Shown: piece by piece, positions 3,729 through 14,913 of the stretch
Position numbering within the stretch: the first letter of the stretch is position 1
Layout: the number at the start of each line of letters is the position of its first letter
DNA from: Candidatus Micrarchaeales archaeon
GTDB taxonomy: Archaea > Micrarchaeota > Micrarchaeia > Micrarchaeales > CABMGC01
Reading direction: 5' to 3'
NCBI GenBank assembly: GCA_050749785.1
Contig: JBOGSA010000002.1
Span: 37,447-61,446, forward strand
Length of the DNA: 24,000 nucleotides
Notes under the pieces: model-generated
The model's input: the letters and a program-made list of their open reading frames with translations, nothing else
Told to the model about the DNA's origin: nothing
Database searches by the model: none
Translations under genes and position numbers: made by a program

Positions 3729-4064
3729 ATGGATGAGAACACAACGCCTCCACCCCCTGCTGATCCTATAGTTACTCAAAACCAGCAGAAAAAACCAAAT
3801 CCATTTGCAGGCGTGTGGAAAGACAAGAAGTATGTCACAGTTTTCATAATCGCCCTACTTATCGGATTTTTTGTATCTCAGCCGCTTGCTATAATACTTA
3901 TACTAATCAATTTGGCTTGGTATGGAAGAGCACACGGAATATTTAAGAGCGATAAGGATGCAGCGAAATTTGCAGGAAAGCAGCTTGGAATAATACTTAT
4001 TACATTTACCGTGGTAGTAGCTGTAGTTCTACTTATACTGTATTTTGCCGGAGTTTTCTCCTAA
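3729..4064 (+). CDS. Small membrane protein (Pro-rich N-terminus, about three predicted TM helices)
   Basis: Hydrophobic stretches VTVFIIALLIGFFV, LAIILILINLAWY and LGIILITFTVVVAVVLLILYFAGVF. Starts 4 nt after the trpS stop. Confidence 0.6.
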   Translation: MDENTTPPPPADPIVTQNQQKKPNPFAGVWKDKKYVTVFIIALLIGFFVSQPLAIILILINLAWYGRAHGIFKSDKDAAKFAGKQLGIILITFTVVVAVVLLILYFAGVFS

Positions 4065-4078
4065 GGCTCCTCGCTCTG

Positions 4079-4624
4079 CTACGGTCCAAGTCTCTCCTTA
4101 AGGTTTAGGTACATGAAGACATTGTCTATGTAGGTTCTCCTTCTCTTCAGGCCGTTAGGCAAAACCCCAAATTCAACAAAGCCCACCTTCTTATACAGCT
4201 TCTTAGCATCGTTTGTTGCAAATACCGAGAGCCTGAGCATCTCAAACTTATGTTTAGATCTTTCAATGATGTCTCTAAGGAGCATCTCTCCTATACCAAT
4301 GCCACGCGAATCCTTTCTGATTGCAATACCAAGTTCTGCAATGTGGAGTGTCTCTGCCATTCTCTTGTATCTATGCACATCACACATCCCAACAACATGA
4401 CCGTTTCGCTCGGCTATCGATGCGATAGCATCCCCCCTTTTGATATCCTTCATGAGGCCAGCAAACCACTTGCGCTCCTCTTTCAGTGTCGGTATCTTAG
4501 GCTGCGAGCTCAGGCCAAAATGAACATCACGTTTGATCTCCTTCTGGTAAGAGTAGTAGTTCTTAATCAGGGCTTCCCTGTCCCTGCGTTCTACTGGCCG
4601 AATGATAAAAAGTGTGCCCTCCAT
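4079..4624 (-). CDS. GNAT-family N-acetyltransferase
   Basis: Acetyl-CoA binding core (LGIAIRKDSRGIGIGEMLLRDIIERSK...ATNDAKKLYKKVGF) typical of GNAT motif A/B. Confidence 0.8.
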   Translation of the reverse strand: MEGTLFIIRPVERRDREALIKNYYSYQKEIKRDVHFGLSSQPKIPTLKEERKWFAGLMKDIKRGDAIASIAERNGHVVGMCDVHRYKRMAETLHIAELGIAIRKDSRGIGIGEMLLRDIIERSKHKFEMLRLSVFATNDAKKLYKKVGFVEFGVLPNGLKRRRTYIDNVFMYLNLKERLGP

Positions 4625-4920: not shown

Positions 4921-5481
4921 TCACTTGTTTATCTTCATCCTTGCAAGCTTTTTAGAAGCGAATATCCGTATCATATACTCCTGTATCTCTTTGATAAAGG
5001 CCGCCTCGTTGGTCTTGCGCATCTTCTCCTCATCGGGCTCAAAGAGGCCTACATTTCTGACAACAAGATTTTTGAGGTAGCTTTGGGTTATGGAATAAAG
5101 TTTCTTTTTGCAGTTGCTGCACACAAAGAGTGGGATAACGGGCACTGTTGTTATTGCAGACGGGTGCACGAGGTCCATCTCCCTGCTTATCTTTCCATTT
5201 GTGCAAGTCTCGCATGTTGCATTCACCTTTACATGCTCGTAGTTATCCACATTTTTTATCATGATCTTTTCCGTCACATTCTTCAGATGCACCGCAATCT
5301 CGGCGAGCGGCTCCTTTGACTTGTTGTATGTCTGATCAAGGACTTCCCCGTCCTTGCTGAATTCAGAAACTAGGACTCCATGCGCAGTTTTTTCTATAAC
5401 AGCAAACGCTTTCTGCCCCTCAAACTCATAGAAATCGGTCCTGTACCTTCCATCAGGGCTTTTGTGAACCTCGAGCACCAT
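4921..5481 (-). CDS. Hypothetical protein with a putative Zn-ribbon (C-x2-C ... C-x2-C)
   Basis: The pairs CETC and CSNC lie about 35 aa apart. Its start codon abuts the histone stop (5481/5482). No family recognised. Confidence 0.6.
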   Translation of the reverse strand: MVLEVHKSPDGRYRTDFYEFEGQKAFAVIEKTAHGVLVSEFSKDGEVLDQTYNKSKEPLAEIAVHLKNVTEKIMIKNVDNYEHVKVNATCETCTNGKISREMDLVHPSAITTVPVIPLFVCSNCKKKLYSITQSYLKNLVVRNVGLFEPDEEKMRKTNEAAFIKEIQEYMIRIFASKKLARMKINK

Positions 5482-5718
5482 TCACTCACAGTCTATTACG
5501 TATTTTGCAACGTCCTCCTTTGTTATCTTTGCCCTCCCTTGCTTCTTTGCGTTCTTTACCGCGTACTTTGATATCTTCACTGCCTTCTTTTCGAGTATCC
5601 GGCCCAGCGCGCTCGCGCCGTCGTCGGTTATGTTGACGTTCGCATACCGCTTGATAAGCTTCTTTATCGCTTCATTAGGTATGTTCGCCACATTATCAGC
5701 ACTCAAGATCGTCATCAT
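5482..5718 (-). CDS. Archaeal histone-fold protein
   Basis: 78 aa. The pattern IPNEAIKKLIKRYANVNITDDGASALGRILEKKAVKISKYAVKNAKKQGRAKITKEDV parallels the HMf-type histone fold (helix-loop-helix-loop-helix, R-x-T-[IV]-x-x-x-D). Confidence 0.8.
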   Translation of the reverse strand: MMTILSADNVANIPNEAIKKLIKRYANVNITDDGASALGRILEKKAVKISKYAVKNAKKQGRAKITKEDVAKYVIDCE

Positions 5719-5874
5719 GTGTTTCAGACTTGATCTTACTCATCACACACCTATTCTGGTAGAGAGCTAATTTATAACCTTCCTCTTGCTTCCGCTATTC
5801 TCCTTGAAAACGTAAAAAACAAAGTTGTAGATTTGATTTATAAAGTCCGAAAAGAAGAATATTAGTGTGAAACG

Positions 5875-6339
5875 ATGGCATATGTTTTCCAACCAAAAGA
5901 TGCGGGCGCAAGAAGCGACCAGACGCTAGCACTTGCCATCAAGGTCGGAGAGGTGATAAGGGGGACGAACCTCGGCGCAGAAGTGGTTAACGATCTGATA
6001 AACGCATGCAATCTAGAGCAGAGCCTAAAGAACGAGGTGAGGAAGGTATTCCGCTCAATCGGCGAGGAGATACCACAAGAGGAGCCGGTAACATACAAAG
6101 GCCACACGGTTAAACTCAAGCAGAAGAACAAGATAAGGAGGATTGCACTAAAGTACCCTGACCAGATAATGGGCACAATAGCGATTGCAAGAATGCTCAA
6201 CCTTGAGAGGGCGGTGGCAATACTTAAGAGGGAACTTGCCAAGCAGCAATCTAAATCCGATCCGCTGATGGACAAGCTCGCACTCTCGAGCTTCAACTAC
6301 GAAGTGAGAAAGATAGAGAACAGGAAGCTTGGCTTCTAA
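5875..6339 (+). CDS. Hypothetical 154-aa protein
   Basis: Long ORF preceded by a TTTATAAA box about 35 nt upstream. No family recognised. The antisense ORFs 5862-6296 and 6148-6540 are treated as shadows. Confidence 0.6.
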   Translation: MAYVFQPKDAGARSDQTLALAIKVGEVIRGTNLGAEVVNDLINACNLEQSLKNEVRKVFRSIGEEIPQEEPVTYKGHTVKLKQKNKIRRIALKYPDQIMGTIAIARMLNLERAVAILKRELAKQQSKSDPLMDKLALSSFNYEVRKIENRKLGF

Positions 6340-6391
6340 AGCTTCTAAACTTATATATCTATTCCCGACTGAAGTAGTATTGGTGTTTTCT

Positions 6392-6712
6392 ATGGCAGTA
6401 GATGATATTAACAAGGATAAATTCGACGCAGACGTATTGAATTCCAGCACTCCGGTAGTGGTGGACTTCTGGGCAGAGTGGTGCGGACCGTGCAGGGTAT
6501 TCTCCCCTATAGTCGAGGAGGTCTCAGGCGAGTTTGACAAGAAGGTAAAGTTTTACAAGCTAAACGTGGATGATAATCCTGAAATCGCAGAAAGGTACAA
6601 TGTGATGAGCATTCCAACGGCGGTTCTTTTCGAGAAAGGGGAAGTCAAGGCGGTGTCGATAGGCGCACTGCCAAAGGAGAGCCTCAAGAAATGGATATCG
6701 ACAAACCTATGA
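6392..6712 (+). CDS. trxA: Thioredoxin
   Basis: Canonical WCGPC active site (VVVDFWAEWCGPCRVFSP) and thioredoxin length when started at ATG 6392. The track start at 6329 adds a hydrophobic extension. Confidence 0.92.
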   Translation: MAVDDINKDKFDADVLNSSTPVVVDFWAEWCGPCRVFSPIVEEVSGEFDKKVKFYKLNVDDNPEIAERYNVMSIPTAVLFEKGEVKAVSIGALPKESLKKWISTNL

Positions 6713-6724
6713 TTGGTGCTTTTT

Positions 6725-7993
6725 ATGCCACTCTCACAGCCAAGGGGCGTTAGGGACTTCGGACCCGCAGATGCCATTGCAAGGAAGAGAATAATCGCGG
6801 TTGTAGAAGAGACATTCAAGAGATTCGGATTTTTGTTCATAGAAACGCCGGCAATCGAGAACCTAGAAGTTCTCAACACAAAAGCGTACGGCGACGAGGC
6901 CTCAAAGCAGATCTACAAAATACAAGACGATGATTCTGCGCTCAGGTTCGATCTTACAATCCCAATGGCTAGATATGTCGCGATGAACGGCAACATGCCG
7001 CTGCCATTCAAGAGATACCAGATTGGCCAGACATGGAGACGCGACGAGCCGCAGAAGATGCGCTATAGGGAATTCACGCAAGCAGACATCGATATAGTTG
7101 GAGGCGCCGGCCCGGAAAACGATGCAGAGATAATCGCCGCATCATCTTTTGCGCTTGAGGAACTGGGGCTCACCGACTACAAAATCCTGCTAAACAGCAG
7201 AATAATACTCAATGCAGTGATGGAGTCATTTGGAATCGGCGCAGAGAATCAAGCAGCCGCGATAAGAACGCTTGACAAGCTCGCAAAGGTGAGCATCCAG
7301 GAGACAGAGGACCAAATCGCAAAGCTTACGGATGCAAGGAATGCAGAAAAGCTCGTGGAATTCATAACCCAAGAGGGATTAAACGAAGAGAAGCTCGAGA
7401 GGATTGCGGCAAACATCACAGAAACAAAAGTGGAGGTTGACAAGCTGCAGAAGCTAATCGAACTGATCCGCACCTACAAACTGCGCGGCGAAGTTGTCTT
7501 CTCACCATCGCTTGCCCGCGGGCTTGACTACTACACAAGCTTCGTGTGGGAGTTCGTGATCACCTACAATGGAAAGACGCTGCCCACAATCGCCGCTGGC
7601 GGAAGGTACGACAATTTGATGGAATTATACTCAAAGAAGAGCATGCCGGCGGTCGGATGCTCAATCGGGATCGATAGGGTCTTTGATGTGATCGAGACGC
7701 AGCCGATGCAAGCACCAACTTCGAAACTATTTGTTGCTGTCATAGGTGATGAAAATTACAATTACGCACTCACAATCGCAAGCAGTGCACGCGCAAAAGG
7801 AATCTACACCGACATAAACACCACAAAGCGCAACATCTCAAAACAATTAGAGTATGCAAACGCACTTAAATTCAGATATGCAATAATAGTAGGTAATCAG
7901 GAGAGGTCTGCAAACAAGCTAAAGCTCAGGGATCTTGCAAGCGGCGATGAGGAATTGCTCTCGCTTGATGAGGCAATGCAGAAGATCGGGTAA
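6725..7993 (+). CDS. hisS: Histidyl-tRNA synthetase
   Basis: Class II HisRS motifs: PRGVRDFGP, YQIGQTWRRDEPQKMRYREFTQADIDIVG, GGRYDNL, GCSIGIDR. ATG at 6725; the track start at 6713 is TTG. Confidence 0.92.
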   Translation: MPLSQPRGVRDFGPADAIARKRIIAVVEETFKRFGFLFIETPAIENLEVLNTKAYGDEASKQIYKIQDDDSALRFDLTIPMARYVAMNGNMPLPFKRYQIGQTWRRDEPQKMRYREFTQADIDIVGGAGPENDAEIIAASSFALEELGLTDYKILLNSRIILNAVMESFGIGAENQAAAIRTLDKLAKVSIQETEDQIAKLTDARNAEKLVEFITQEGLNEEKLERIAANITETKVEVDKLQKLIELIRTYKLRGEVVFSPSLARGLDYYTSFVWEFVITYNGKTLPTIAAGGRYDNLMELYSKKSMPAVGCSIGIDRVFDVIETQPMQAPTSKLFVAVIGDENYNYALTIASSARAKGIYTDINTTKRNISKQLEYANALKFRYAIIVGNQERSANKLKLRDLASGDEELLSLDEAMQKIG

Positions 7994-7997
7994 GAAA

Positions 7998-8492
7998 ATG
8001 GCAAAGGATGAAGTAAGCAAGGTAACGCACGACGCGCTCCAAGAAGGCGGAGTTCTAGCCAAGCTTTATTTTGACATGCACAGCGAGAAAGAGGAGGATC
8101 TGCAGCCGCTGATGACAGATCTGATAAGCAATAGGCTGCTCAAGACGCCGGGCGTAATATACTGCGTGGGTGAGATTGCCGAGCCAATAAAAATAGAGGA
8201 GATTTATTCCACCAACGCCGTGGCAACAATACTCTTCAAGGACATCGGTGCTCTGATAAACGTCACATTCAACTACGCACCAGCCGGCATCGAGATAATA
8301 AAACCAGAAAAGGAGGTTGCGATAAAGGTTAGCGAGCTCCAATCCATACTTCTCGACCTATCGAAAGTTGCGATGGAGTATTCACAGTTCATACTCAGCC
8401 GGGTCCTTTCAAAGGAGGACTACGAAAAAGTGCAGGGCGACCTCAAGAACAGGGAACTCGTGGGAAAGAGGCTGCTCGAGAAGAAGGAGTAG
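7998..8492 (+). CDS. Hypothetical 164-aa protein (gene X; left flank of the cassette array)
   Basis: ATG at 7998, 4 nt after the hisS stop. Its last 86 codons are duplicated at 11067-11327 with a purifying-selection pattern, which argues for a real, conserved gene. Family not recognised. Confidence 0.7.
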   Translation: MAKDEVSKVTHDALQEGGVLAKLYFDMHSEKEEDLQPLMTDLISNRLLKTPGVIYCVGEIAEPIKIEEIYSTNAVATILFKDIGALINVTFNYAPAGIEIIKPEKEVAIKVSELQSILLDLSKVAMEYSQFILSRVLSKEDYEKVQGDLKNRELVGKRLLEKKE

Positions 8493-8588: not shown

Positions 8589-8774
8589 ATGGGCGGAACA
8601 ATAAATAAGAACGGCAAACTGTATAAAACAGAAAGAAGGATAACCTTCGTTATGTCACCTAAGAATGGTTGCCCACGTTTCAGCATAACGGGAAACGTAA
8701 CAAAATTCAGAGACGACTTTGGCGGCAGAGTTAAATCAAAAGGAAAGCTTATAAGACACTTTACCTCTGTTTAA
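8589..8774 (+). CDS. Cassette 1 small protein E1 (61 aa), function unknown
   Basis: ATG 8589 within track ORF 8553-8774. An ungapped alignment with hand-translated E2 shares CPR..(I/V).G..(V)KF.DD(F/Y). Position and the 3-prime/3-prime overlap with R are conserved in both cassettes. Confidence 0.45.
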   Translation: MGGTINKNGKLYKTERRITFVMSPKNGCPRFSITGNVTKFRDDFGGRVKSKGKLIRHFTSV

Positions 8775-9789
8775 CTACTGATTTAATAAATTCCCTTTGT
8801 TTCTCATACTCCTCCAAATGAGAAGGCCACTTGCCAACTATAATATCGGTAAGTATTGCCCTATCTATTTTTGGCTTTTCTGTTTTCCACATAGTTTGTA
8901 CTAGTTCGGCGCCTCTTTTTGACATCTCCTCCCCATTCTTGAAAGTGCACATAGAAAACACATCATAAGTGCCATTAATGTTAACATCGAGCACATAGTC
9001 ACTTGTTGCCCCATTAAAACTTTCTGTAGTAAATTCTTTTGCCAAATTAAGGGCCAGTTCTTGGTGGTTTTTTACAGGTGTTAATGTTGCCCCATATGCC
9101 AAAATAATCTTCTTATCTGTCTCTTGAGTTAGGGCAGCAAATTTCCTAATAATTTTCTTTTGTTCAAGTTTTTCAAGTATGTAAATGGCCCTCATCTGCG
9201 TTGTCTTCGCCTTATTCACCAGCTCCTTTAACTTTATTCTTGAGTTTTCATTTACCGCTTTTAGCACCGCTTTTTCAGTTTTGTTGAGTATTGGACTTAG
9301 TTCAATCAGCTCATTTTTCAACGGTAAAAACCCAACAATGTATTCATTGATCGTAGAAGTCTTGAAGATCGGCACATAATCGCTCAAATCCATCCTGAGC
9401 TTAAACTGCCATGTTTGGAAGTCTTTTGAGGTTAAACCTACCACATAAAGAAGAAGGTCAAAGTCTCCCGTTCCCAAATAAGCGTCCTGTACGAAGACAT
9501 CCCTCCTGAATTTATTGTATAGAAATTCTCTCGTAGGCGTATTCTCAAATTTTACCGTTATGAGTCTGCCCTCAGAAAAACCTAAGGCAACCTCGTCAAG
9601 TTCAACTGTATAATATATATGGTATCGTGCCTCCAGTTCCTTTAAAACTTTGGAGATAGTAAAATGGGAAACCCCTATTTCACGAGATAATTCCCTAATA
9701 GTAATTCGGGAATTTTTGGCTATTCTAACTAAAATCTGATAAGGCACTTCTTCCCGTATGAATTTCATAGCTTTTCGCGTGTGCACCAT
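8761..9789 (-). CDS. Cassette 1 regulator R1: two tandem wHTH + RAM-like modules (Lrp/AsnC-like)
   Basis: HTH-like segments: ILVRIAKNSRITIRELSREIGVSHFTISKVLKELE and VLKAVNENSRIKLKELVNKAKTTQMRAIYILEKLEQKKIIRKF. Each is followed by a RAM-like segment, e.g. LITVKFEN...VQDAYLGTGDFDLLLYVVGLTSKDF. ATG at 9789; TTG alternative at 9801. Confidence 0.7.
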   Translation of the reverse strand: MVHTRKAMKFIREEVPYQILVRIAKNSRITIRELSREIGVSHFTISKVLKELEARYHIYYTVELDEVALGFSEGRLITVKFENTPTREFLYNKFRRDVFVQDAYLGTGDFDLLLYVVGLTSKDFQTWQFKLRMDLSDYVPIFKTSTINEYIVGFLPLKNELIELSPILNKTEKAVLKAVNENSRIKLKELVNKAKTTQMRAIYILEKLEQKKIIRKFAALTQETDKKIILAYGATLTPVKNHQELALNLAKEFTTESFNGATSDYVLDVNINGTYDVFSMCTFKNGEEMSKRGAELVQTMWKTEKPKIDRAILTDIIVGKWPSHLEEYEKQREFIKSVVKQR

Positions 9790-9912
9790 TTTATCTTCCA
9801 AAATAATTATTTATTTATTATATTAATGATAAATACTATAATTTATTTGATTTATTTGCCAATAAATATATATACCCAAAACTTCATAATTATTTCCAGA
9901 GGGAATTGGATT
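9790..9912. promoter_or_regulatory. AT-rich divergent control region of cassette 1 (between R1 and the A1-D1 operon)
   Basis: About 85% A+T by eye, with multiple TATA-like boxes on both strands. Contains the tandem direct repeat ATTTATTTG x2 at 9841-9858. Confidence 0.55.
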
Positions 9913-10182
9913 ATGGGGATATACACTGCCAATGCTTTCCCAAAGTTTGGCAAGACTGATTTTCTTCACTCCCTAAAGAATACCCATCCCAAGGTAAGTT
10001 CCCATATCCTTCCCTCCATCTACAACTCCTTCATCAAAAGATTCGTAAGACCGAAATTTGTCAGAAAATCGTACCTATGTTGGCAGTGTGAGGAGAAATA
10101 CTCCGATCCCCTGAAATATACCATGCATATGCGGGACTGCTGTTGCATAAAGCAATGTGCCACTATAGAGGTAATTAAATGA
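9913..10182 (+). CDS. Cassette 1 protein A1: small classical (beta-beta-alpha type) C2HC zinc-finger protein
   Basis: The segment YLCWQCEEKYSDPLKYTMHMRDC fits Y-x-C-x2-C-x3-Y-x5-Y-x2-H-x3-C. About 65% aa identity to A2. ATG at 9913 within track ORF 9781-10182. Confidence 0.8.
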   Translation: MGIYTANAFPKFGKTDFLHSLKNTHPKVSSHILPSIYNSFIKRFVRPKFVRKSYLCWQCEEKYSDPLKYTMHMRDCCCIKQCATIEVIK

Positions 10183-10346
10183 AGCCGCATGAACGTGCCA
10201 TGGAGATGCTCTTGCAAATAAGCGAGATGAACCTCATGCTGCCTGAGCTCTATAGCCACCTTCCAAGGAACGACTGGATAAGGATTAAGCAGCTTCTCGA
10301 GGAGACACAGCAGATACTCGAAAAGCATAGGAGGGTGCCGATATGA
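10179..10346 (+). CDS. Cassette 1 protein B1: 55-aa helical protein
   Basis: Hand-translated: MKPHERAMEMLLQISEMNLMLPELYSHLPRNDWIRIKQLLEETQQILEKHRRVPI. ATGA overlap with the A1 stop. 44/55 identical to B2. Below the track cutoff. Confidence 0.75.
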   Translation: MKPHERAMEMLLQISEMNLMLPELYSHLPRNDWIRIKQLLEETQQILEKHRRVPI

Positions 10347-10504
10347 ACTACTACGCCTACATCAGGAGAAGGTGCGCAGACCTTATCAGCCTGAGGTTCA
10401 AGTTGCACAAGCTATTCAATTTCCTGCATGGCCCGGATTTTGAAAGGCTGCAGGAATTGCTTGATGAAGCAGAACAGATACTTAAGAAATACGAGAATAT
10501 GTGA
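10343..10504 (+). CDS. Cassette 1 protein C1: 53-aa helical protein, paralogous to B
   Basis: Hand-translated: MNYYAYIRRRCADLISLRFKLHKLFNFLHGPDFERLQELLDEAEQILKKYENM. ATGA overlap with the B1 stop. The first 51 aa are identical to C2 despite about 13 synonymous nucleotide differences. Confidence 0.85.
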   Translation: MNYYAYIRRRCADLISLRFKLHKLFNFLHGPDFERLQELLDEAEQILKKYENM

Positions 10505-10517
10505 ATTGTGTGTTTTC

Positions 10518-10802
10518 ATGTCTTCAAAAAGGAAGTGTAGGATAGCATGCGAAAGCCAAAAGCTGCGCAGTTTCATAATGCTAAAGCCCTCACTGCCTGC
10601 CAACTCGCACGCAGTAGCAAAGGAGATCGCGATGTGCAGGGGCGTGAGGGAGGTGGCACTTACGACAGGCGAATTTGGATTTATTGTAGGAGTAGAGTCA
10701 GAGCCATTGGTTGAAGAGATCAAAAGGAAGATTCACACAATTGCACATTCCAAAAAGATGAGTGTGCTTGTCAAGCATTTTTCGTACAAAAATACACTAT
10801 AA
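10518..10802 (+). CDS. Cassette 1 protein D1: stand-alone RAM (Lrp/AsnC ligand-binding-like) domain protein
   Basis: FIMLKPSLPANSHAVAKEIAMCRGVREVALTTGEFGFIVGVES resembles the RAM beta-alpha-beta-beta core (V.EV..VTGEYDLIV.VE). About 65-70% identical to D2. ATG 10518; TTG 10506 is possible. Confidence 0.75.
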   Translation: MSSKRKCRIACESQKLRSFIMLKPSLPANSHAVAKEIAMCRGVREVALTTGEFGFIVGVESEPLVEEIKRKIHTIAHSKKMSVLVKHFSYKNTL

Positions 10803-10804
10803 AG

Positions 10805-11062
10805 TCATTTCGCCAGCCCGCGCAGGAAAAACCTCTTTATCACGACGCTCGGCCTGTCCATGTCGCCGTATTTTCCAAGGAACGATTCGAGGCCCATCAG
10901 TTTTATCACCCTGGCAATCCTCTCAAGGCTCTTTTTGCTCTGCGTTGCGTAAAGGTTGTAGAAGAAAGAATGCAGCCTGACTTCTTTCTCAAACTCCTTC
11001 CTCCATTTGCGCTCATATGTGCTGAGCTGCGTTCCTTTGTTTATGTGGCTTGCGATTGCATC
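10805..11062 (-). pseudogene. 3-prime fragment (last 85 codons + stop) of a GGR-family gene
   Basis: Encodes DAIASHINKG...FFLRGLAK, 85/85 aa identical to the end of 13807-14913, with about 9 nucleotide differences that are all synonymous. It lacks the remaining ~283 codons. The upstream extension of track ORF 10805-11107 is antisense of the X fragment. Confidence 0.88.
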
Positions 11063-11066
11063 AGTG

Positions 11067-11327
11067 CTCTTCAAGGACATCGGCGCGCTGATAAACGTGG
11101 CGTTCAACTACGCCCCGGCGGGAATCGAGATAATGAAGCCGGACAAGGAAGTGTCGATAAAGACGAGCGAGCTCCAGTCCATAATACTCGACCTATCGAA
11201 AGTTGCGATGGAGTATTCACAGTTCATACTCAGCAGAGTGCTATCCAAGGAGGATTTCGAAAAGGCCAAGACCGACCTGCAAAACAGAGAGATGATAGGC
11301 AAGAAGCTCCTTGAAAAGAAGGACTAA
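11067..11327 (+). pseudogene. 3-prime fragment (last 86 codons + stop) of a gene-X homologue
   Basis: LFKDIGALINVAF...LLEKKD is 71/86 identical to the X C-terminus, and the replacements are mostly conservative. It lacks the first 78 codons. The upstream part of track ORF 11007-11327 is antisense of the GGR fragment. Confidence 0.88.
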
Positions 11328-11446
11328 AAAATCAATAATCGCATTTTATTCTCCACCCATCTGGAATATCTATTTTTATTTCCATTTTCCTCCATTTTTA
11401 GACCCCTTGAAATATCAATTGATAATAAACGAAGTTACATATCAGA

Positions 11447-11454
11447 TTTATAAA
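11447..11454 (+). promoter_or_regulatory. TATA-like box (TTTATAAA) of the conserved left-edge block, cassette 2
   Basis: Counterpart of 8525-8532. Lies about 36 nt upstream of the E2 ATG. Confidence 0.5.
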
Positions 11455-11489
11455 GGGGGATTGCAATGATTATTTGTATAGTGAGTTAA

Positions 11490-11660
11490 ATGAGAATTAT
11501 AAAGAGCAACAATAAGACAGTAATAGTAGCATCGGGGGGGGACAATGGCTCACAGTGCCCACGAGGAATCGTATCTGGCAGTCATGTTAAGTTTGCTGAT
11601 GATTACCACAATAAACTTATAGCTAAGAAATCTCTCGTCTTTAAGCTATTTCTTGTATGA
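11490..11660 (+). CDS. Cassette 2 small protein E2 (56 aa), function unknown
   Basis: Hand-translated: MRIIKSNNKTVIVASGGDNGSQCPRGIVSGSHVKFADDYHNKLIAKKSLVFKLFLV. Weak but positional homology to E1. Overlaps the R2 3-prime end by 15 nt. Contains a G8 run. Confidence 0.4.
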   Translation: MRIIKSNNKTVIVASGGDNGSQCPRGIVSGSHVKFADDYHNKLIAKKSLVFKLFLV

Positions 11661-12767
11661 TTTTGGTATTAATTTTGCCGATTCTAGGAATTTATATTGT
11701 CTAGAGTATACGGCATCAAAATCTCTGACACCTGTATTACCAAGCAATATCTGTGTCATGAAGAAGGGTTTTATTGATGATCCATGTAACTCTGTCCTTA
11801 ATTTATTAAGGAACTTTTCAGCAGAATTACCATCAACAAAATTCATAAAAATTATTATGCCTTGTGGGGTAGAAATATCGCACATGAAAGTATACTCTAT
11901 GTGTTTATCATAATCCCTAACCATATCTAGCCACCAGACTGATCTGCTATTTAGAAATTGTTTGTCGTTAAGTATCGTGACTTGGACTATGAGCGTAACA
12001 ACATTGTTTGGCTTATTTTCATAGTAAGTAATTCTGCGAAGCATTCCTGTATCTATCAACCTTTCATACGCATAGATAATATGCGGTAATCCATGTTTTG
12101 ATTCTTTTGCAATGGCACTAAACTCCTTTCTCCCATCTTCATTCAATGCTAGCAGAATGTGTTTATACGTATCTAGTATTTGGAATTTCTCTACGAGATT
12201 ATTTTGCATAGGGAAGAAACCGAAGGTCGTGCGTATGTTCAATAGCTCAGAACGTATTTCATAATGTTTATCAAGGCTGCTGATGTCCTCTCTAAAAGTA
12301 TTTAAAAATCTGTTTATCTCGTCGTAGCTTCTTGCAATTCCATATATAACTACATCATATTCGCCATGCAATCTTGCTGCAAATTGCGGTATATAATGTT
12401 TTTCAAGAGCTTTTGAGAACTCAATGTCTGTAGGGATACCATCTATGAATTTGATGAATATTAGGTACTCTTCGAAGCCTAACTCCGGCAACTTTTCAAT
12501 AACGTTTTCTAAGATTCCCTTCTTATTGTAGGTTCTCGCATATTTTACAAATTCCCATCGCCACAATTCCTCTATCCCTATTTCGGGAGTAAAACGTATG
12601 TCCTGTTCCTTTACCGTCTCTCTAAATAATCTATTCAAGGTGGTTTGGGGGACATTAAGTTTTGAAGCAAGATCCCTTATACTTCTTCTTCCATCAACAC
12701 TCAAAAGTTTCAGCATCCTTCTCTTAATTGCTGCCTTTTCCTCATCACTAAATATTCTGTCAGGCAT
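11646..12767 (-). CDS. Cassette 2 regulator R2: two tandem wHTH + RAM-like modules (Lrp/AsnC-like)
   Basis: HTH-like segments: LKLLSVDGRRSIRDLASKLNVPQTTLNRLFRE and ILLALNEDGRKEFSAIAKESKHGLPHIIYAYERLIDTGMLRRI. RAM-like segment: LIFIKFIDG...AARLHGEYDVVIYGIARSYDEINRF. Same architecture as R1 but only about 20% identity by eye. ATG at 12767; TTG alternative at 12785. Confidence 0.7.
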   Translation of the reverse strand: MPDRIFSDEEKAAIKRRMLKLLSVDGRRSIRDLASKLNVPQTTLNRLFRETVKEQDIRFTPEIGIEELWRWEFVKYARTYNKKGILENVIEKLPELGFEEYLIFIKFIDGIPTDIEFSKALEKHYIPQFAARLHGEYDVVIYGIARSYDEINRFLNTFREDISSLDKHYEIRSELLNIRTTFGFFPMQNNLVEKFQILDTYKHILLALNEDGRKEFSAIAKESKHGLPHIIYAYERLIDTGMLRRITYYENKPNNVVTLIVQVTILNDKQFLNSRSVWWLDMVRDYDKHIEYTFMCDISTPQGIIIFMNFVDGNSAEKFLNKLRTELHGSSIKPFFMTQILLGNTGVRDFDAVYSRQYKFLESAKLIPKSYKK

Positions 12768-12915: not shown

Positions 12916-13179
12916 ATGGGAACTTACATCGTCGAAACTTACAAGTTAGGCACTACTGATTTTCTTCACTCCCTGAAGAACAACCCCCAGAAGGTAAGTT
13001 CCCAAACCTCTCCCTCATTCTATAAGTCCTTTATCAAAAGATTCGCAAGAACAAAAGTCATAAAGAAAGCCTACTTGTGCTGGGAATGCGAGGCGAAGTA
13101 TTCTGATCCTTTGAAATATGCTATACACTTGGAAGACTGCTGCACTAAACAGTGTGCCACAATCGAGGTAATTAAATGA
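12916..13179 (+). CDS. Cassette 2 protein A2: classical C2HC zinc-finger protein
   Basis: YLCWECEAKYSDPLKYAIHLEDC has the same spacing as A1. ATG 12916; the track start at 12910 is TTG. Confidence 0.8.
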   Translation: MGTYIVETYKLGTTDFLHSLKNNPQKVSSQTSPSFYKSFIKRFARTKVIKKAYLCWECEAKYSDPLKYAIHLEDCCTKQCATIEVIK

Positions 13180-13343
13180 AGCCGCATGAACGTGCCATGG
13201 AGATGCTCTTGCAAATAAGCGAGATGAACCTCATGCTGCCTGAAATATACAATCACCTTACCATGAATGATTGGTACAGACTAAAGCAGCTCCTCGAGGA
13301 GGCAGAACAGATACTGGAAAAACACAAGAAGGTCTCGATATGA
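13176..13343 (+). CDS. Cassette 2 protein B2: 55-aa helical protein
   Basis: Hand-translated: MKPHERAMEMLLQISEMNLMLPEIYNHLTMNDWYRLKQLLEEAEQILEKHKKVSI. ATGA overlaps at both ends, as in cassette 1. Confidence 0.75.
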   Translation: MKPHERAMEMLLQISEMNLMLPEIYNHLTMNDWYRLKQLLEEAEQILEKHKKVSI

Positions 13344-13504
13344 ACTATTATGCCTACATAAGGAGAAGGTGTGCAGATCTAATCAGCCTAAGGTTTAAGT
13401 TGCACAAGTTGTTTAACTTCCTGCATGGCCCGGATTTTGAAAGGTTGCAGGAATTGCTTGATGAAGCAGAACAGATACTTAAGAAATACGAGAGAAGCAT
13501 GTAA
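13340..13504 (+). CDS. Cassette 2 protein C2: 54-aa helical protein
   Basis: MNYYAYIRRRCADLISLRFKLHKLFNFLHGPDFERLQELLDEAEQILKKYERSM, the C-terminal part of track ORF 13271-13504. Confidence 0.85.
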   Translation: MNYYAYIRRRCADLISLRFKLHKLFNFLHGPDFERLQELLDEAEQILKKYERSM

Positions 13505-13515
13505 TGGTGTGTTTC

Positions 13516-13818
13516 ATGTCTTTGAAGAACAAGTGTAAGATAGCGTGCGAAAACCTGCGAAGTCAGCATGGCTTCATAATTCTGAAGCCCTCTTCGTCTA
13601 TTAATTCACACATTGTTGCAAAGGAGATCGCGATGTGCGAGGGTGTAAAGGAAGTGGCGTTGACAACTGGCGAATTTGGATTTGTAGTGAGGGTGGAGTC
13701 AAGAATAGGGATTGAAGGCATCAAAAGGAAAATTTCTGCAATTACTCATTCTAAAAAGGCAAGTATCCTCGTAAAGCATTTTTCATACCGAAATACCATC
13801 CATAATTCATTTAGCTAA
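13516..13818 (+). CDS. Cassette 2 protein D2: stand-alone RAM-domain protein
   Basis: FIILKPSSSINSHIVAKEIAMCEGVKEVALTTGEFGFVVRVES. ATG at 13516 is homologous to the D1 start; an upstream ATG at 13504 is possible. The 3-prime end overlaps the GGR stop region by 12 nt. Confidence 0.75.
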   Translation: MSLKNKCKIACENLRSQHGFIILKPSSSINSHIVAKEIAMCEGVKEVALTTGEFGFVVRVESRIGIEGIKRKISAITHSKKASILVKHFSYRNTIHNSFS

Positions 13819-14913
13819 GCCGCGCAGGAAAAACCTCTTTATCACGACGCTCGGCCTGTCCATGTCGCCGTATTTTCCAAGGAATGATTCGAGGCCCATC
13901 AGTTTTATCACCCTGGCAATCCTCTCAAGGCTCTTTTTGCTCTGCGTTGCGTAAAGGTTGTAGAAGAAAGAATGCAGCCTGACCTCCTTTTCAAATTCCT
14001 TCCTCCATTTGCGCTCATATGTGCTGAGCTGCGTTCCTTTGTTTATGTGGCTTGCGATTGCATCTGCGGCATATCGAGCTCCGTTTCCGCCGAATATTAT
14101 TCCGCCTCCGGTGGTTGGCTTCACCTGACCTGCAGCATCGCCGACAAGAAGCACCTCTTCTTTGTCCTTCACGAAATGTTCGCGCATCCCAACCGGAATG
14201 AAACTTGCGCCTTCTGTTATGAATTTTCCGCTCTTTACTACCTCTGCAATCGCAGGGATTTTCTTGAATTTCTCAAATGATGACTTGCTGTTGCCAAACT
14301 TCGAGTCAATCCCTATTCCTATTTCCGCGATATCTTTTGAGTTTGGGCAGATCCATCCGAAGAATCCAGGGGTGAGGTCGTTGTCGAAAAATAGCTCCAC
14401 CATGCTGTTCTCCTCTAACTTATAATCATATTCCGCCCTGAAAGTGAGAATCTGCCTTTGTATTGCAGGAAACTTGAAATGCCTTGCCACAGACGACACA
14501 GCTCCATCGGCGCCTACCACTATCTTCTCCTGCGACAACTTATCGAATAGGGTAGCATCAACCTTTGTACCAATATGCATCTTCACTCCCTTCTTCTCGC
14601 TCTCTTCTAAAAGCAGCTTGTTGAGTTCAAATCGCTCAAGTACATAGGCCACAGCCTTCTGTGATTTTATCTCTAGTATCTCCTTGCCTATGTGTAATTT
14701 TGCTCCGTGTAAGGTGTTGGTCATCACCTTCCTGTAATCTATGCCCAAGGTTTCAAGTCCGCTGATCGAAAGGATTCCGGATGCTCGCACAGGAAATCCA
14801 GGCGTCTTGTTCTGGTCGTACACATCAGTTTCTATTCCAAAATCACGCAGCCTGTTTGCAGCAATTAACCCTGCAGTTCCTGCCCCAATAATCGCAACAC
14901 TATTCTTCATCAA
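13807..14913 (-). CDS. Geranylgeranyl reductase-family FAD-dependent oxidoreductase (right flank of the cassette array)
   Basis: N-terminal dinucleotide fold VAIIGAGTAGLIAANRL...DVYDQ, followed by LLVGDAAGQVKPTTGGGI. Length and motif order are typical of archaeal GGR-family proteins. Confidence 0.85.
   Translation of the reverse strand: MMKNSVAIIGAGTAGLIAANRLRDFGIETDVYDQNKTPGFPVRASGILSISGLETLGIDYRKVMTNTLHGAKLHIGKEILEIKSQKAVAYVLERFELNKLLLEESEKKGVKMHIGTKVDATLFDKLSQEKIVVGADGAVSSVARHFKFPAIQRQILTFRAEYDYKLEENSMVELFFDNDLTPGFFGWICPNSKDIAEIGIGIDSKFGNSKSSFEKFKKIPAIAEVVKSGKFITEGASFIPVGMREHFVKDKEEVLLVGDAAGQVKPTTGGGIIFGGNGARYAADAIASHINKGTQLSTYERKWRKEFEKEVRLHSFFYNLYATQSKKSLERIARVIKLMGLESFLGKYGDMDRPSVVIKRFFLRGLAK

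Follow-up and report, generated by a model that had tools for sequence, protein, structure and literature searches.

The stretch analyzed here (the window) comprises 24,000 nucleotides from the metagenome-assembled genome (MAG) of a Candidatus Micrarchaeales archaeon (assembly GCA_050749785.1, contig JBOGSA010000002.1, positions 37,447 to 61,446 of the forward strand) and carries two cassettes of small genes in tandem, each with one copy of a very small gene, C, which is the subject of this analysis. Both cassettes have the same layout: gene E on the + strand, regulator gene R on the - strand, an AT-rich gap of 120–150 bp, and then genes A-B-C-D on the + strand. C1 (10343..10504, +) encodes a 53-aa predicted helical hairpin and C2 (13340..13504, +) a protein of 54 aa. 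Directly upstream lie the 55-aa paralogs of C, namely B1 (10179..10346, +) and B2 (13176..13343, +; 80% identical to B1). At either end B1 shares 4 nt (ATGA), with the stop of A and with the start of C, and these stop/start overlaps join A with B and B with C in each window cassette, while the B-C overlap recurs in the paralogous cassettes of loci L001 and L010. By sequence reading, the C1 start is preceded, 5 nt upstream, by a GGAGGGTG motif. The other members of the block are A1 (9913..10182, +; 89 aa, with a C-terminal CCHC zinc-finger signature, C-x2-C-x12-H-x3-C) and A2 (12916..13179, +; 87 aa, 67% identical to A1 and 93% to A of the L001 cassette), together with D1 (10518..10802, +; 94 aa, predicted to be a stand-alone RAM, or Lrp/AsnC ligand-binding, domain) and D2 (13516..13818, +; 100 aa, 73% identical to D1). 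R1 (8761..9789, -; 342 aa, two winged helix-turn-helix [HTH] Lrp/AsnC-like units) is divergent from A1, and R2 (11646..12767, -; 373 aa) is of a different subtype, 26% identical to R1. E1 (8589..8774, +; ACREBF_00490), convergent with R1, encodes a small protein with invariant CPR and DD motifs, and E2 (11490..11660, +; 56 aa) belongs to the same family.

The product of C1 is MNYYAYIRRRCADLISLRFKLHKLFNFLHGPDFERLQELLDEAEQILKKYENM, and that of C2 is the same over residues 1–51 and then ends in RSM, such that only the tails (ENM* vs ERSM*) tell the copies apart. Over the 51 shared codons, the DNA of the copies differs at 13 positions in 12 codons, and all 13 differences are synonymous, exactly as the original prediction had it (51 shared residues and about 13 silent changes in 12 codons), down to the codon pairs it listed. 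Third positions account for 11 of the differences and silent first-position exchanges between CTN and TTR leucine codons for the other two, and 11 of the 13 are transitions. A random single change in the C open reading frame (ORF) would be silent with a probability of 0.19–0.29, depending on transition bias, and the chance of 13 silent changes out of 13 is 5e-10 to 9e-8. The codon likelihood-ratio test (LRT) proposed beforehand, run against omega = 1 under a pairwise maximum-likelihood model of the Goldman-Yang type, gave an omega near 0 (LRT 33.5, p = 7e-9). The other five frames each contain stop codons (1–6) and amino-acid differences between the copies (2–12), on which grounds alternative and antisense genes over C were rejected, and the proposed frame alone is open and unchanged. 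The silent-only differences, the omega and the single conserved frame bear out the prediction of translation and strong purifying selection, and identify C, as far as sequence comparison can, as a genuine translated gene under strong purifying selection.

The annotation itself had not overlooked the gene, as had been supposed, since both copies are already hypothetical proteins of the source MAG in GenBank (C1 = ACREBF_00505, C2 = ACREBF_00535), and purifying selection on a small ORF is in itself unsurprising. The degree of constraint was set against that of the neighboring genes. In the same codon alignment, omega between cassettes 1 and 2 was 0.12–0.18 for A, B and D, and the constraint on C significantly exceeded that on B (Fisher p = 0.007) and on A (p = 0.0005). 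Across the C family (17 genes), uncorrected silent divergence was about 0.81 and non-silent divergence about 0.18. The earlier claim that C is the most constrained component of the module also held across cassettes, where C showed the highest identity of all components in 45 of 45 pairwise comparisons: amino-acid identity ranged from 56% to 100% for C, 25% to 89% for B, 33% to 93% for A, 27% to 73% for D, 23% to 69% for R and 29% to 54% for E.

The silent differences between C1 and C2 are unevenly distributed, with 12 of the 13 in codons 1–26 and one in codons 27–51 (binomial p = 0.002). Branch lengths are 1.25 and 0.038 substitutions per codon in the two halves, and silent divergence is 0.83 vs 0.07; in codons 1–26, silent sites are near saturation and resemble those of A, D and the distal part of B. 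The second half lies within a near-identical stretch (10421-10496 vs 13418-13493, +; 76 bp, one mismatch, identical runs of 27 and 48 bp), a putative recent gene-conversion tract, and a second putative conversion tract covers the end of A and the start of B as far as B codons 1–23 (10168-10246 vs 13165-13243, +; 79 bp, 100% identical). Outside the two tracts, the A-D block is 65–85% identical between cassettes 1 and 2 in the mosaic alignment. Among the 17 family genes, silent divergence shows no such asymmetry (0.80 in the first half vs 0.82 in the second), which argues against a general DNA- or RNA-level constraint on the second half of C; therefore, the identity of codons 27–51 between C1 and C2 is best put down to recent conversion or recombination and not to selection alone. 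Hence, the original attribution of the protein identity to selection stands for codons 1–26 but not for codons 27–51, where the DNA itself is near-identical and points to a recent conversion tract. Over its first 23 codons B2 equals B1, after which its nearest relatives abruptly become the L001 and L009 copies (93%–96% identical); we read this change of closest paralog as the signature of gene conversion among cassettes. All five cassettes of the genome are mosaics produced by recombination; L001 (5798-6162) and L009 (2-365), for instance, show 100% identity along roughly their first 100 aligned bases. The tracts belong to an ongoing recombination by which the A-D blocks of the cassettes within a genome are homogenized, and the identity of C1 and C2 would then combine strong protein selection with recent copy-to-copy exchange of DNA.

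The regulators beside the block have a different history. In neighbor-joining trees, R groups by subtype across genomes, whereas C groups by genome lineage; thus, R and E appear to be old paralogs, and the A-D block appears to evolve in concert within each genome, in line with the conversion tracts. R1 has orthologs on L004 and L011 with 52%–53% identity (52% for L004, from MAG REEA49), R2 has one on L003 (also REEA49) with 59% identity, and the R proteins of L001 and L006 are 69% identical. R1 and R2 are therefore better described as old paralog subtypes, each with a 52%–59% identical ortholog in another Micrarchaeota genome, than as the fast-diverged duplicates implied by the original statement that R had diverged almost beyond recognition.

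The source genome carries five C genes (the two of the window plus those on L001, L009 and L010), with proteins 79%–100% identical, and REEA49 also has five copies. A word-indexed search for C returned seven relatives (64%–88% identity), all from Micrarchaeota MAGs or metagenome assemblies, and when 1.84 billion cluster representatives were searched exhaustively with a profile, just 19 clusters (50% identity) came up at E <= 0.001; those with a taxon name were all Micrarchaeota, and many other members were metagenome sequences. Seven further C loci were recovered from metagenomes. Homologs of A and E were likewise found exclusively in Micrarchaeota MAGs or metagenome contigs. Searches of C against Pfam-A (best E = 0.061, below the cut-off) and NCBIfam (best E = 0.09) gave no family match, those against PHROGs (best E = 0.053) and PADLOC (best E = 0.017) gave no credible match, and nothing credible was found for A, B and E in the same four libraries. 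Against the sequences of the PDB, the C profile matched only designed helical bundles and a G-alpha helix. Two long proteins (P0019 and P0024) matched the second helix of C three times and had no informative Pfam domain; they were set aside as sharing a helical motif and not as homologs of C. P0009, encoded on one metagenome contig (L018 640-945), combines a C-family domain with a CxxC...CxxC zinc ribbon at the C terminus, and its gene adjoins a divergent Lrp-like gene. P0022 (L023 4001-4261) is a marginal C-like protein of 86 aa (E = 1.6e-4) of uncertain homology, situated in a long series of small genes, all pointing the same way and accompanied by Ku and an ATP-dependent DNA ligase, that looks virus- or plasmid-like. 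Upstream of distant C homologs, GC-rich stretches of about 170 nt (L019 510-690 and L022 400-590) are about 90% identical between contigs; indels of 2–3 nt break their apparent ORF, such that they may represent a non-coding RNA or a regulatory leader, and scans of both loci gave no Rfam or tRNA match.

C, A and D co-occur in most cassettes that have enough flanking DNA. Gene order is A-B-C-D in the source genome and C-A-D-B or B-C-A-D in the REEA49 lineage. Individual cassettes carry additional features, among them unrelated cargo genes placed between C and D or after them. At L001, two NUDIX hydrolase genes lie between C and D (6181-7435), two tandem E-family genes lie upstream of one R gene (3927-4271), and a further E + R pair (11528-12160) indicates that E has also been multiplied. 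About 2.8 kb separates C and D at L006 (6177-8454), with two large ORFs of 347 and 414 aa. At L009, D is split into ORFs 352-495 and 544-675 (352-675 overall), which may be a frameshifted pseudogene or a sequencing error, and a V-type ATPase catalytic subunit gene stands beside the cassette (5359-6365), with an intein that carries a LAGLIDADG endonuclease domain in the precomputed Pfam annotation. At L022 (974-4759), a distant C homolog is followed by a Cys-containing, precursor-like gene of 56 aa and three radical-SAM/SPASM enzymes. These genes raised the idea that C might be the precursor of a ribosomally synthesized and post-translationally modified peptide, which was rejected because C is conserved along its whole length; it varies only in a tail of up to about 10 residues and has no Cys-rich core, and the radical-SAM/SPASM genes follow C in this one distant locus only, which has its own separate precursor-like gene.

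Between D1 and E2, two truncated genes lie back to back: the 3' end of a geranylgeranyl reductase gene (10805..11062, -; 85 codons), the full copy of which is at 13807-14910, and the 3' end of a gene X (11058..11327, +; 89 codons), the full copy of which lies upstream at about 7998-8492. Their parents share a short microhomology at the junction (11052-11062). The reductase piece differs from its full copy by nine silent and no non-silent changes (85 residues identical; omega near 0, p = 7e-7), and the X piece has 81% amino-acid identity to its own (omega 0.09, p = 3e-12). Gene X and its truncated copy had no match in the copy of Pfam searched; the precomputed annotation lists PF27325 (MJ0538 family) for the truncated X (11046-11327). 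Dead fragments would lose so nearly silent a pattern of differences. The likeliest history is that each piece and its full copy evolved for a time as complete genes in different lineages and only afterwards came together, perhaps through illegitimate recombination, anchored by homology, with a relative's DNA; another possibility is that the truncated pieces are still expressed. Under either origin of the tandem pair, the comparison of C1 with C2 measures selection on the protein. The same tandem arrangement is found on contig CDHSRO010000004.1 of assembly GCA_975254265.1, which is identical to window positions 9338-12764 and then differs by a single-nucleotide polymorphism (SNP) and an indel.

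Several other explanations for the likeness of C1 and C2 were considered. Purifying selection alone, under which the cassettes would be diverged duplicates and C identical because any amino-acid change is lethal or deleterious, accounts for the exclusively silent differences, for the omega near 0 and for C being the most conserved component of the module. We nevertheless think it unlikely, given the clustering of silent changes in codons 1–26, a family-wide silent rate that is no lower in the second half of C, the 79-bp identical tract at the A/B junction with the ensuing switch of nearest paralog, and the other C paralogs of the same genome, which differ from C1 at 5–12 non-synonymous sites. 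The near-identity of codons 27–51 in DNA might instead reflect an overlapping nucleic-acid feature (a structured RNA, an antisense gene or regulatory DNA), with the protein playing no part in the conservation. The original prediction had judged a structured RNA improbable, and the results agree: no Rfam model matched over C at E <= 1, folding z-scores were unremarkable (-0.85 and +0.30 sense, -0.91 and -0.37 antisense), RNAalifold found no conserved pairs among 15 family members, the other five frames are interrupted by stop codons, and third codon positions vary freely in both halves across the family. Such a feature is thus an extremely improbable cause.

The source being a MAG, the tandem pair could also be an assembly chimera of two co-existing strains, in which case C1 vs C2 would be a between-strain comparison, and the truncated X and reductase pieces have indeed diverged under selection as alleles of two lineages would. 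The reductase-X junction, on the other hand, is a novel adjacency with only short microhomology, of a kind that strain variation would not lead a graph assembler to create; the second deposited assembly has the identical junction and the identical two cassettes and differs elsewhere (SNP, indel); and three more paralogous cassettes reside on other contigs of the same MAG. A chimera is accordingly a distant prospect, and the inference of selection on C would stand even if it were true. Equally little credence is given to a selfish or defensive element, such as a toxin-antitoxin pair, an anti-virus system or an integrated virus or plasmid, in which C would be a small antitoxin-like or immunity protein. 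This would explain the multiple copies and the recombination, and would suit the dispersal of five copies over unrelated housekeeping neighborhoods of a small genome, the 375-aa ORF with an integrase-like look beside the REEA49 copy on L004 (a candidate, by sequence reading) and the marginal homolog P0022 in its virus-like array (E = 1.6e-4). It fits poorly with the lack of a credible PADLOC or PHROG match for A, B, C, D and E, with R matching PADLOC only through its HTH regions (Csa3/CasR-type), with the absence of any C relative from 2.9 million viral contigs, with window cassettes that contain no integrase, transposase or terminal repeats, and with the vertical conservation of R subtypes between genomes. 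Selection on the protein combined with exchange between the copies therefore remains the preferred reading.

AlphaFold2, given an alignment of 22 sequences, models C as a helical hairpin (helices 3-24 and 30-52; mean predicted local distance difference test score, or pLDDT, 88.8). A Foldseek comparison with the PDB gave no significant match, and its hits were generic hairpins such as the ESCRT-I headpiece, Rop and Esx proteins. B and C match each other by BLASTP (E = 2e-6) and, over their full length, by profile-profile alignment (hhalign probability 98%, E = 3e-13), and are thus paralogs. Helix 1 of C reads as strongly basic (R8, R9, R10, R18, K20, K23) and helix 2 as acidic, and many conserved residues are polar and likely surface-exposed. 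This suggests that most of the C surface may be engaged in contacts, which would explain the very low rate of non-synonymous change. In the alignment, hydrophobic positions are spaced 3–4 residues apart, with flanking hydrophobics on both helices.

For the regulator, R1 matches Pfam HTH_24 (E = 2.8e-8) and R2 matches HTH_AsnC-type (E = 4.9e-9; 36.3 bits, cut-off 27), each regulator with two HTH stretches; the match of R2 to AsnC_trans_reg is weak (E = 0.17). The NCBIfam Lrp and AsnC models align over positions 6-104 of 149 with scores far below their cut-offs, and the LysM model likewise matches below its cut-off. D was placed by its family profile, which hit the PH1519/FL11 RAM domain at E = 2e-4 and, at E = 2e-3 to 4e-3, a RAM protein of 75 aa that stands alone (2cvi/2e1a); D1 itself falls below threshold for Pfam AsnC_trans_reg (E = 0.003), and single-sequence Pfam scores of D are 18–19.5 bits vs a gathering threshold of 25. 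At 94–100 aa and with no HTH, D has homology to the RAM domain and no DNA-binding domain, as in stand-alone (DM1-like) RAM proteins. For A, no Pfam zinc-finger model matched; in 11 homologs, C56, C59, H72, C76 and W57 never vary, Y63 and Y69 hardly do, and the CCHC residues are predicted metal ligands.

It is very probable that C is translated and constrained, has the predicted hairpin fold, is a paralog of B, belongs to the operon and is consistently associated with A, D and R, and that the A-D block undergoes conversion and concerted evolution. What the protein does is harder to say, and our best guess is that C is an oligomerizing subunit of a feast/famine-type regulatory complex. C would dimerize, with itself or with B, into a four-helix bundle and act as a common structural or adaptor subunit alongside the zinc finger A and the RAM protein D; A, C and D would then be accessory to the feast/famine (Lrp) regulator R, as a complex that responds to a ligand, and the A-D block would be the unvarying output side of several different sensor regulators. 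The role as an accessory to R is proposed because of an analogy with the hetero-oligomers of Pyrococcus FL11 and DM1, which form hetero-octamers in vitro (PMC2995911); amino-acid ligand binding and hetero-oligomerization with the full-length Lrp protein are also known for this pair (PMC2995911). A link of C to a zinc-binding partner is suggested by the fusion to a zinc ribbon in P0009 and in the C-A-D order, in which A comes directly after C.

Some results weigh against this interpretation. Codons 1–26 of C1 and C2 are without amino-acid change, while other within-genome C pairs have 5–17 non-synonymous differences, and selection and exchange account only partly for this complete lack of change. 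The helical hairpin is a generic fold for which the structure search gave nothing significant; the assignments of R and D rest on matches below curated Pfam or NCBIfam thresholds; the ribbon of P0009 (CxxC...CxxC) differs in motif type from the CCHC finger of A; and B is missing from four cassettes (L008, L015, L016 and L017), such that a B-C heterodimer would not be obligatory within a cassette. On balance, we still lean somewhat toward the overall explanation, that is, the identity of C, the dual cause of its identity between copies and a regulatory role. The specific mechanism, with pairing of hairpins and service to R together with A and D, is possible but doubtful. More speculative, and rather unlikely, is a design of many sensors and one output, in which five old R + E sensor pairs would each drive the same A-D set, conversion would keep the set uniform since its products pool in the cell and share a single target, and C, as the most constrained member, would be a new cofactor at the core of transcription or translation control, particular to Micrarchaeota.

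The genomes of DPANN archaea, to which the Micrarchaeota belong, are very small, and most of their lineage-specific genes are functionally uncharacterized. The source genome spends five loci on one cassette, the smallest protein of which is its most constrained part. If C is a shared subunit of Lrp complexes, it would represent a new class of small accessory proteins for a main family of archaeal regulators and provide a handle on nutrient sensing by host-dependent archaea. The locus is, moreover, a clean natural example of a small operon in concerted evolution by gene conversion beside regulators that do not take part, and it illustrates how selection and recombination can both contribute when a protein is perfectly conserved between repeats.

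Among known systems, C resembles Rop/Rom of ColE1 plasmids, a 63-aa hairpin that forms a dimeric four-helix bundle, in its size and predicted helix-loop-helix hairpin, and, by alignment reading, its hydrophobic spacing is what one would expect if the hairpin had to pair in order to bury its core. Unlike Rop, C has an archaeal, chromosomal context and no indication of RNA binding, and the two share no sequence match and no significant fold match (Foldseek E = 3.9-5.9, template modeling score 0.43-0.55). Proteins of the WXG100 family (EsxA/EsxB, CFP-10/ESAT-6) offer a second comparison, as B and C are also tandem paralogous predicted hairpins, probably made in equal amounts, and C has weak, non-significant fold matches to EsxB and EsxEF. 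In contrast to that family, the conserved loop of C and B is (N/S/G)-D-(F/Y/W), with the consensus LHGPDF or VNYSDF in C and LPRNDY in B, and not W-x-G; the hosts are archaea, and the context is not one of type VII secretion. Typical small regulatory proteins of archaea include zinc-finger micro-proteins, such as the small one-domain zinc-finger proteins of haloarchaea. A is similarly small (45–97 aa), with a single predicted zinc finger and a position beside regulators, and differs from them in its CCHC spacing and lack of a Pfam match; this comparison concerns the neighbor of C.

The comparison that bears on the proposed role is with FL11 (PH1519) and DM1, where an Lrp-type DNA-binding regulator is likewise encoded with a stand-alone RAM protein of about 75–100 aa. 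A literature search for Micrarchaeota and Lrp returned only an unrelated copper-island regulator. Unlike FL11, R is here a fused double unit of 342–373 aa, and, unlike the FL11/DM1 system, which has no homolog of C, the whole cassette set occurs five times per genome. Beyond the Lrp systems described so far, the cassette operon encodes a CCHC zinc finger as well as helical-hairpin proteins, of which there are one or two. With respect to the libraries and papers searched, new elements are the family of hairpins to which C and B belong, the constancy with which it is linked to a CCHC finger, a stand-alone RAM protein and a double Lrp regulator, and the five-fold repetition of the cassette with concerted evolution.

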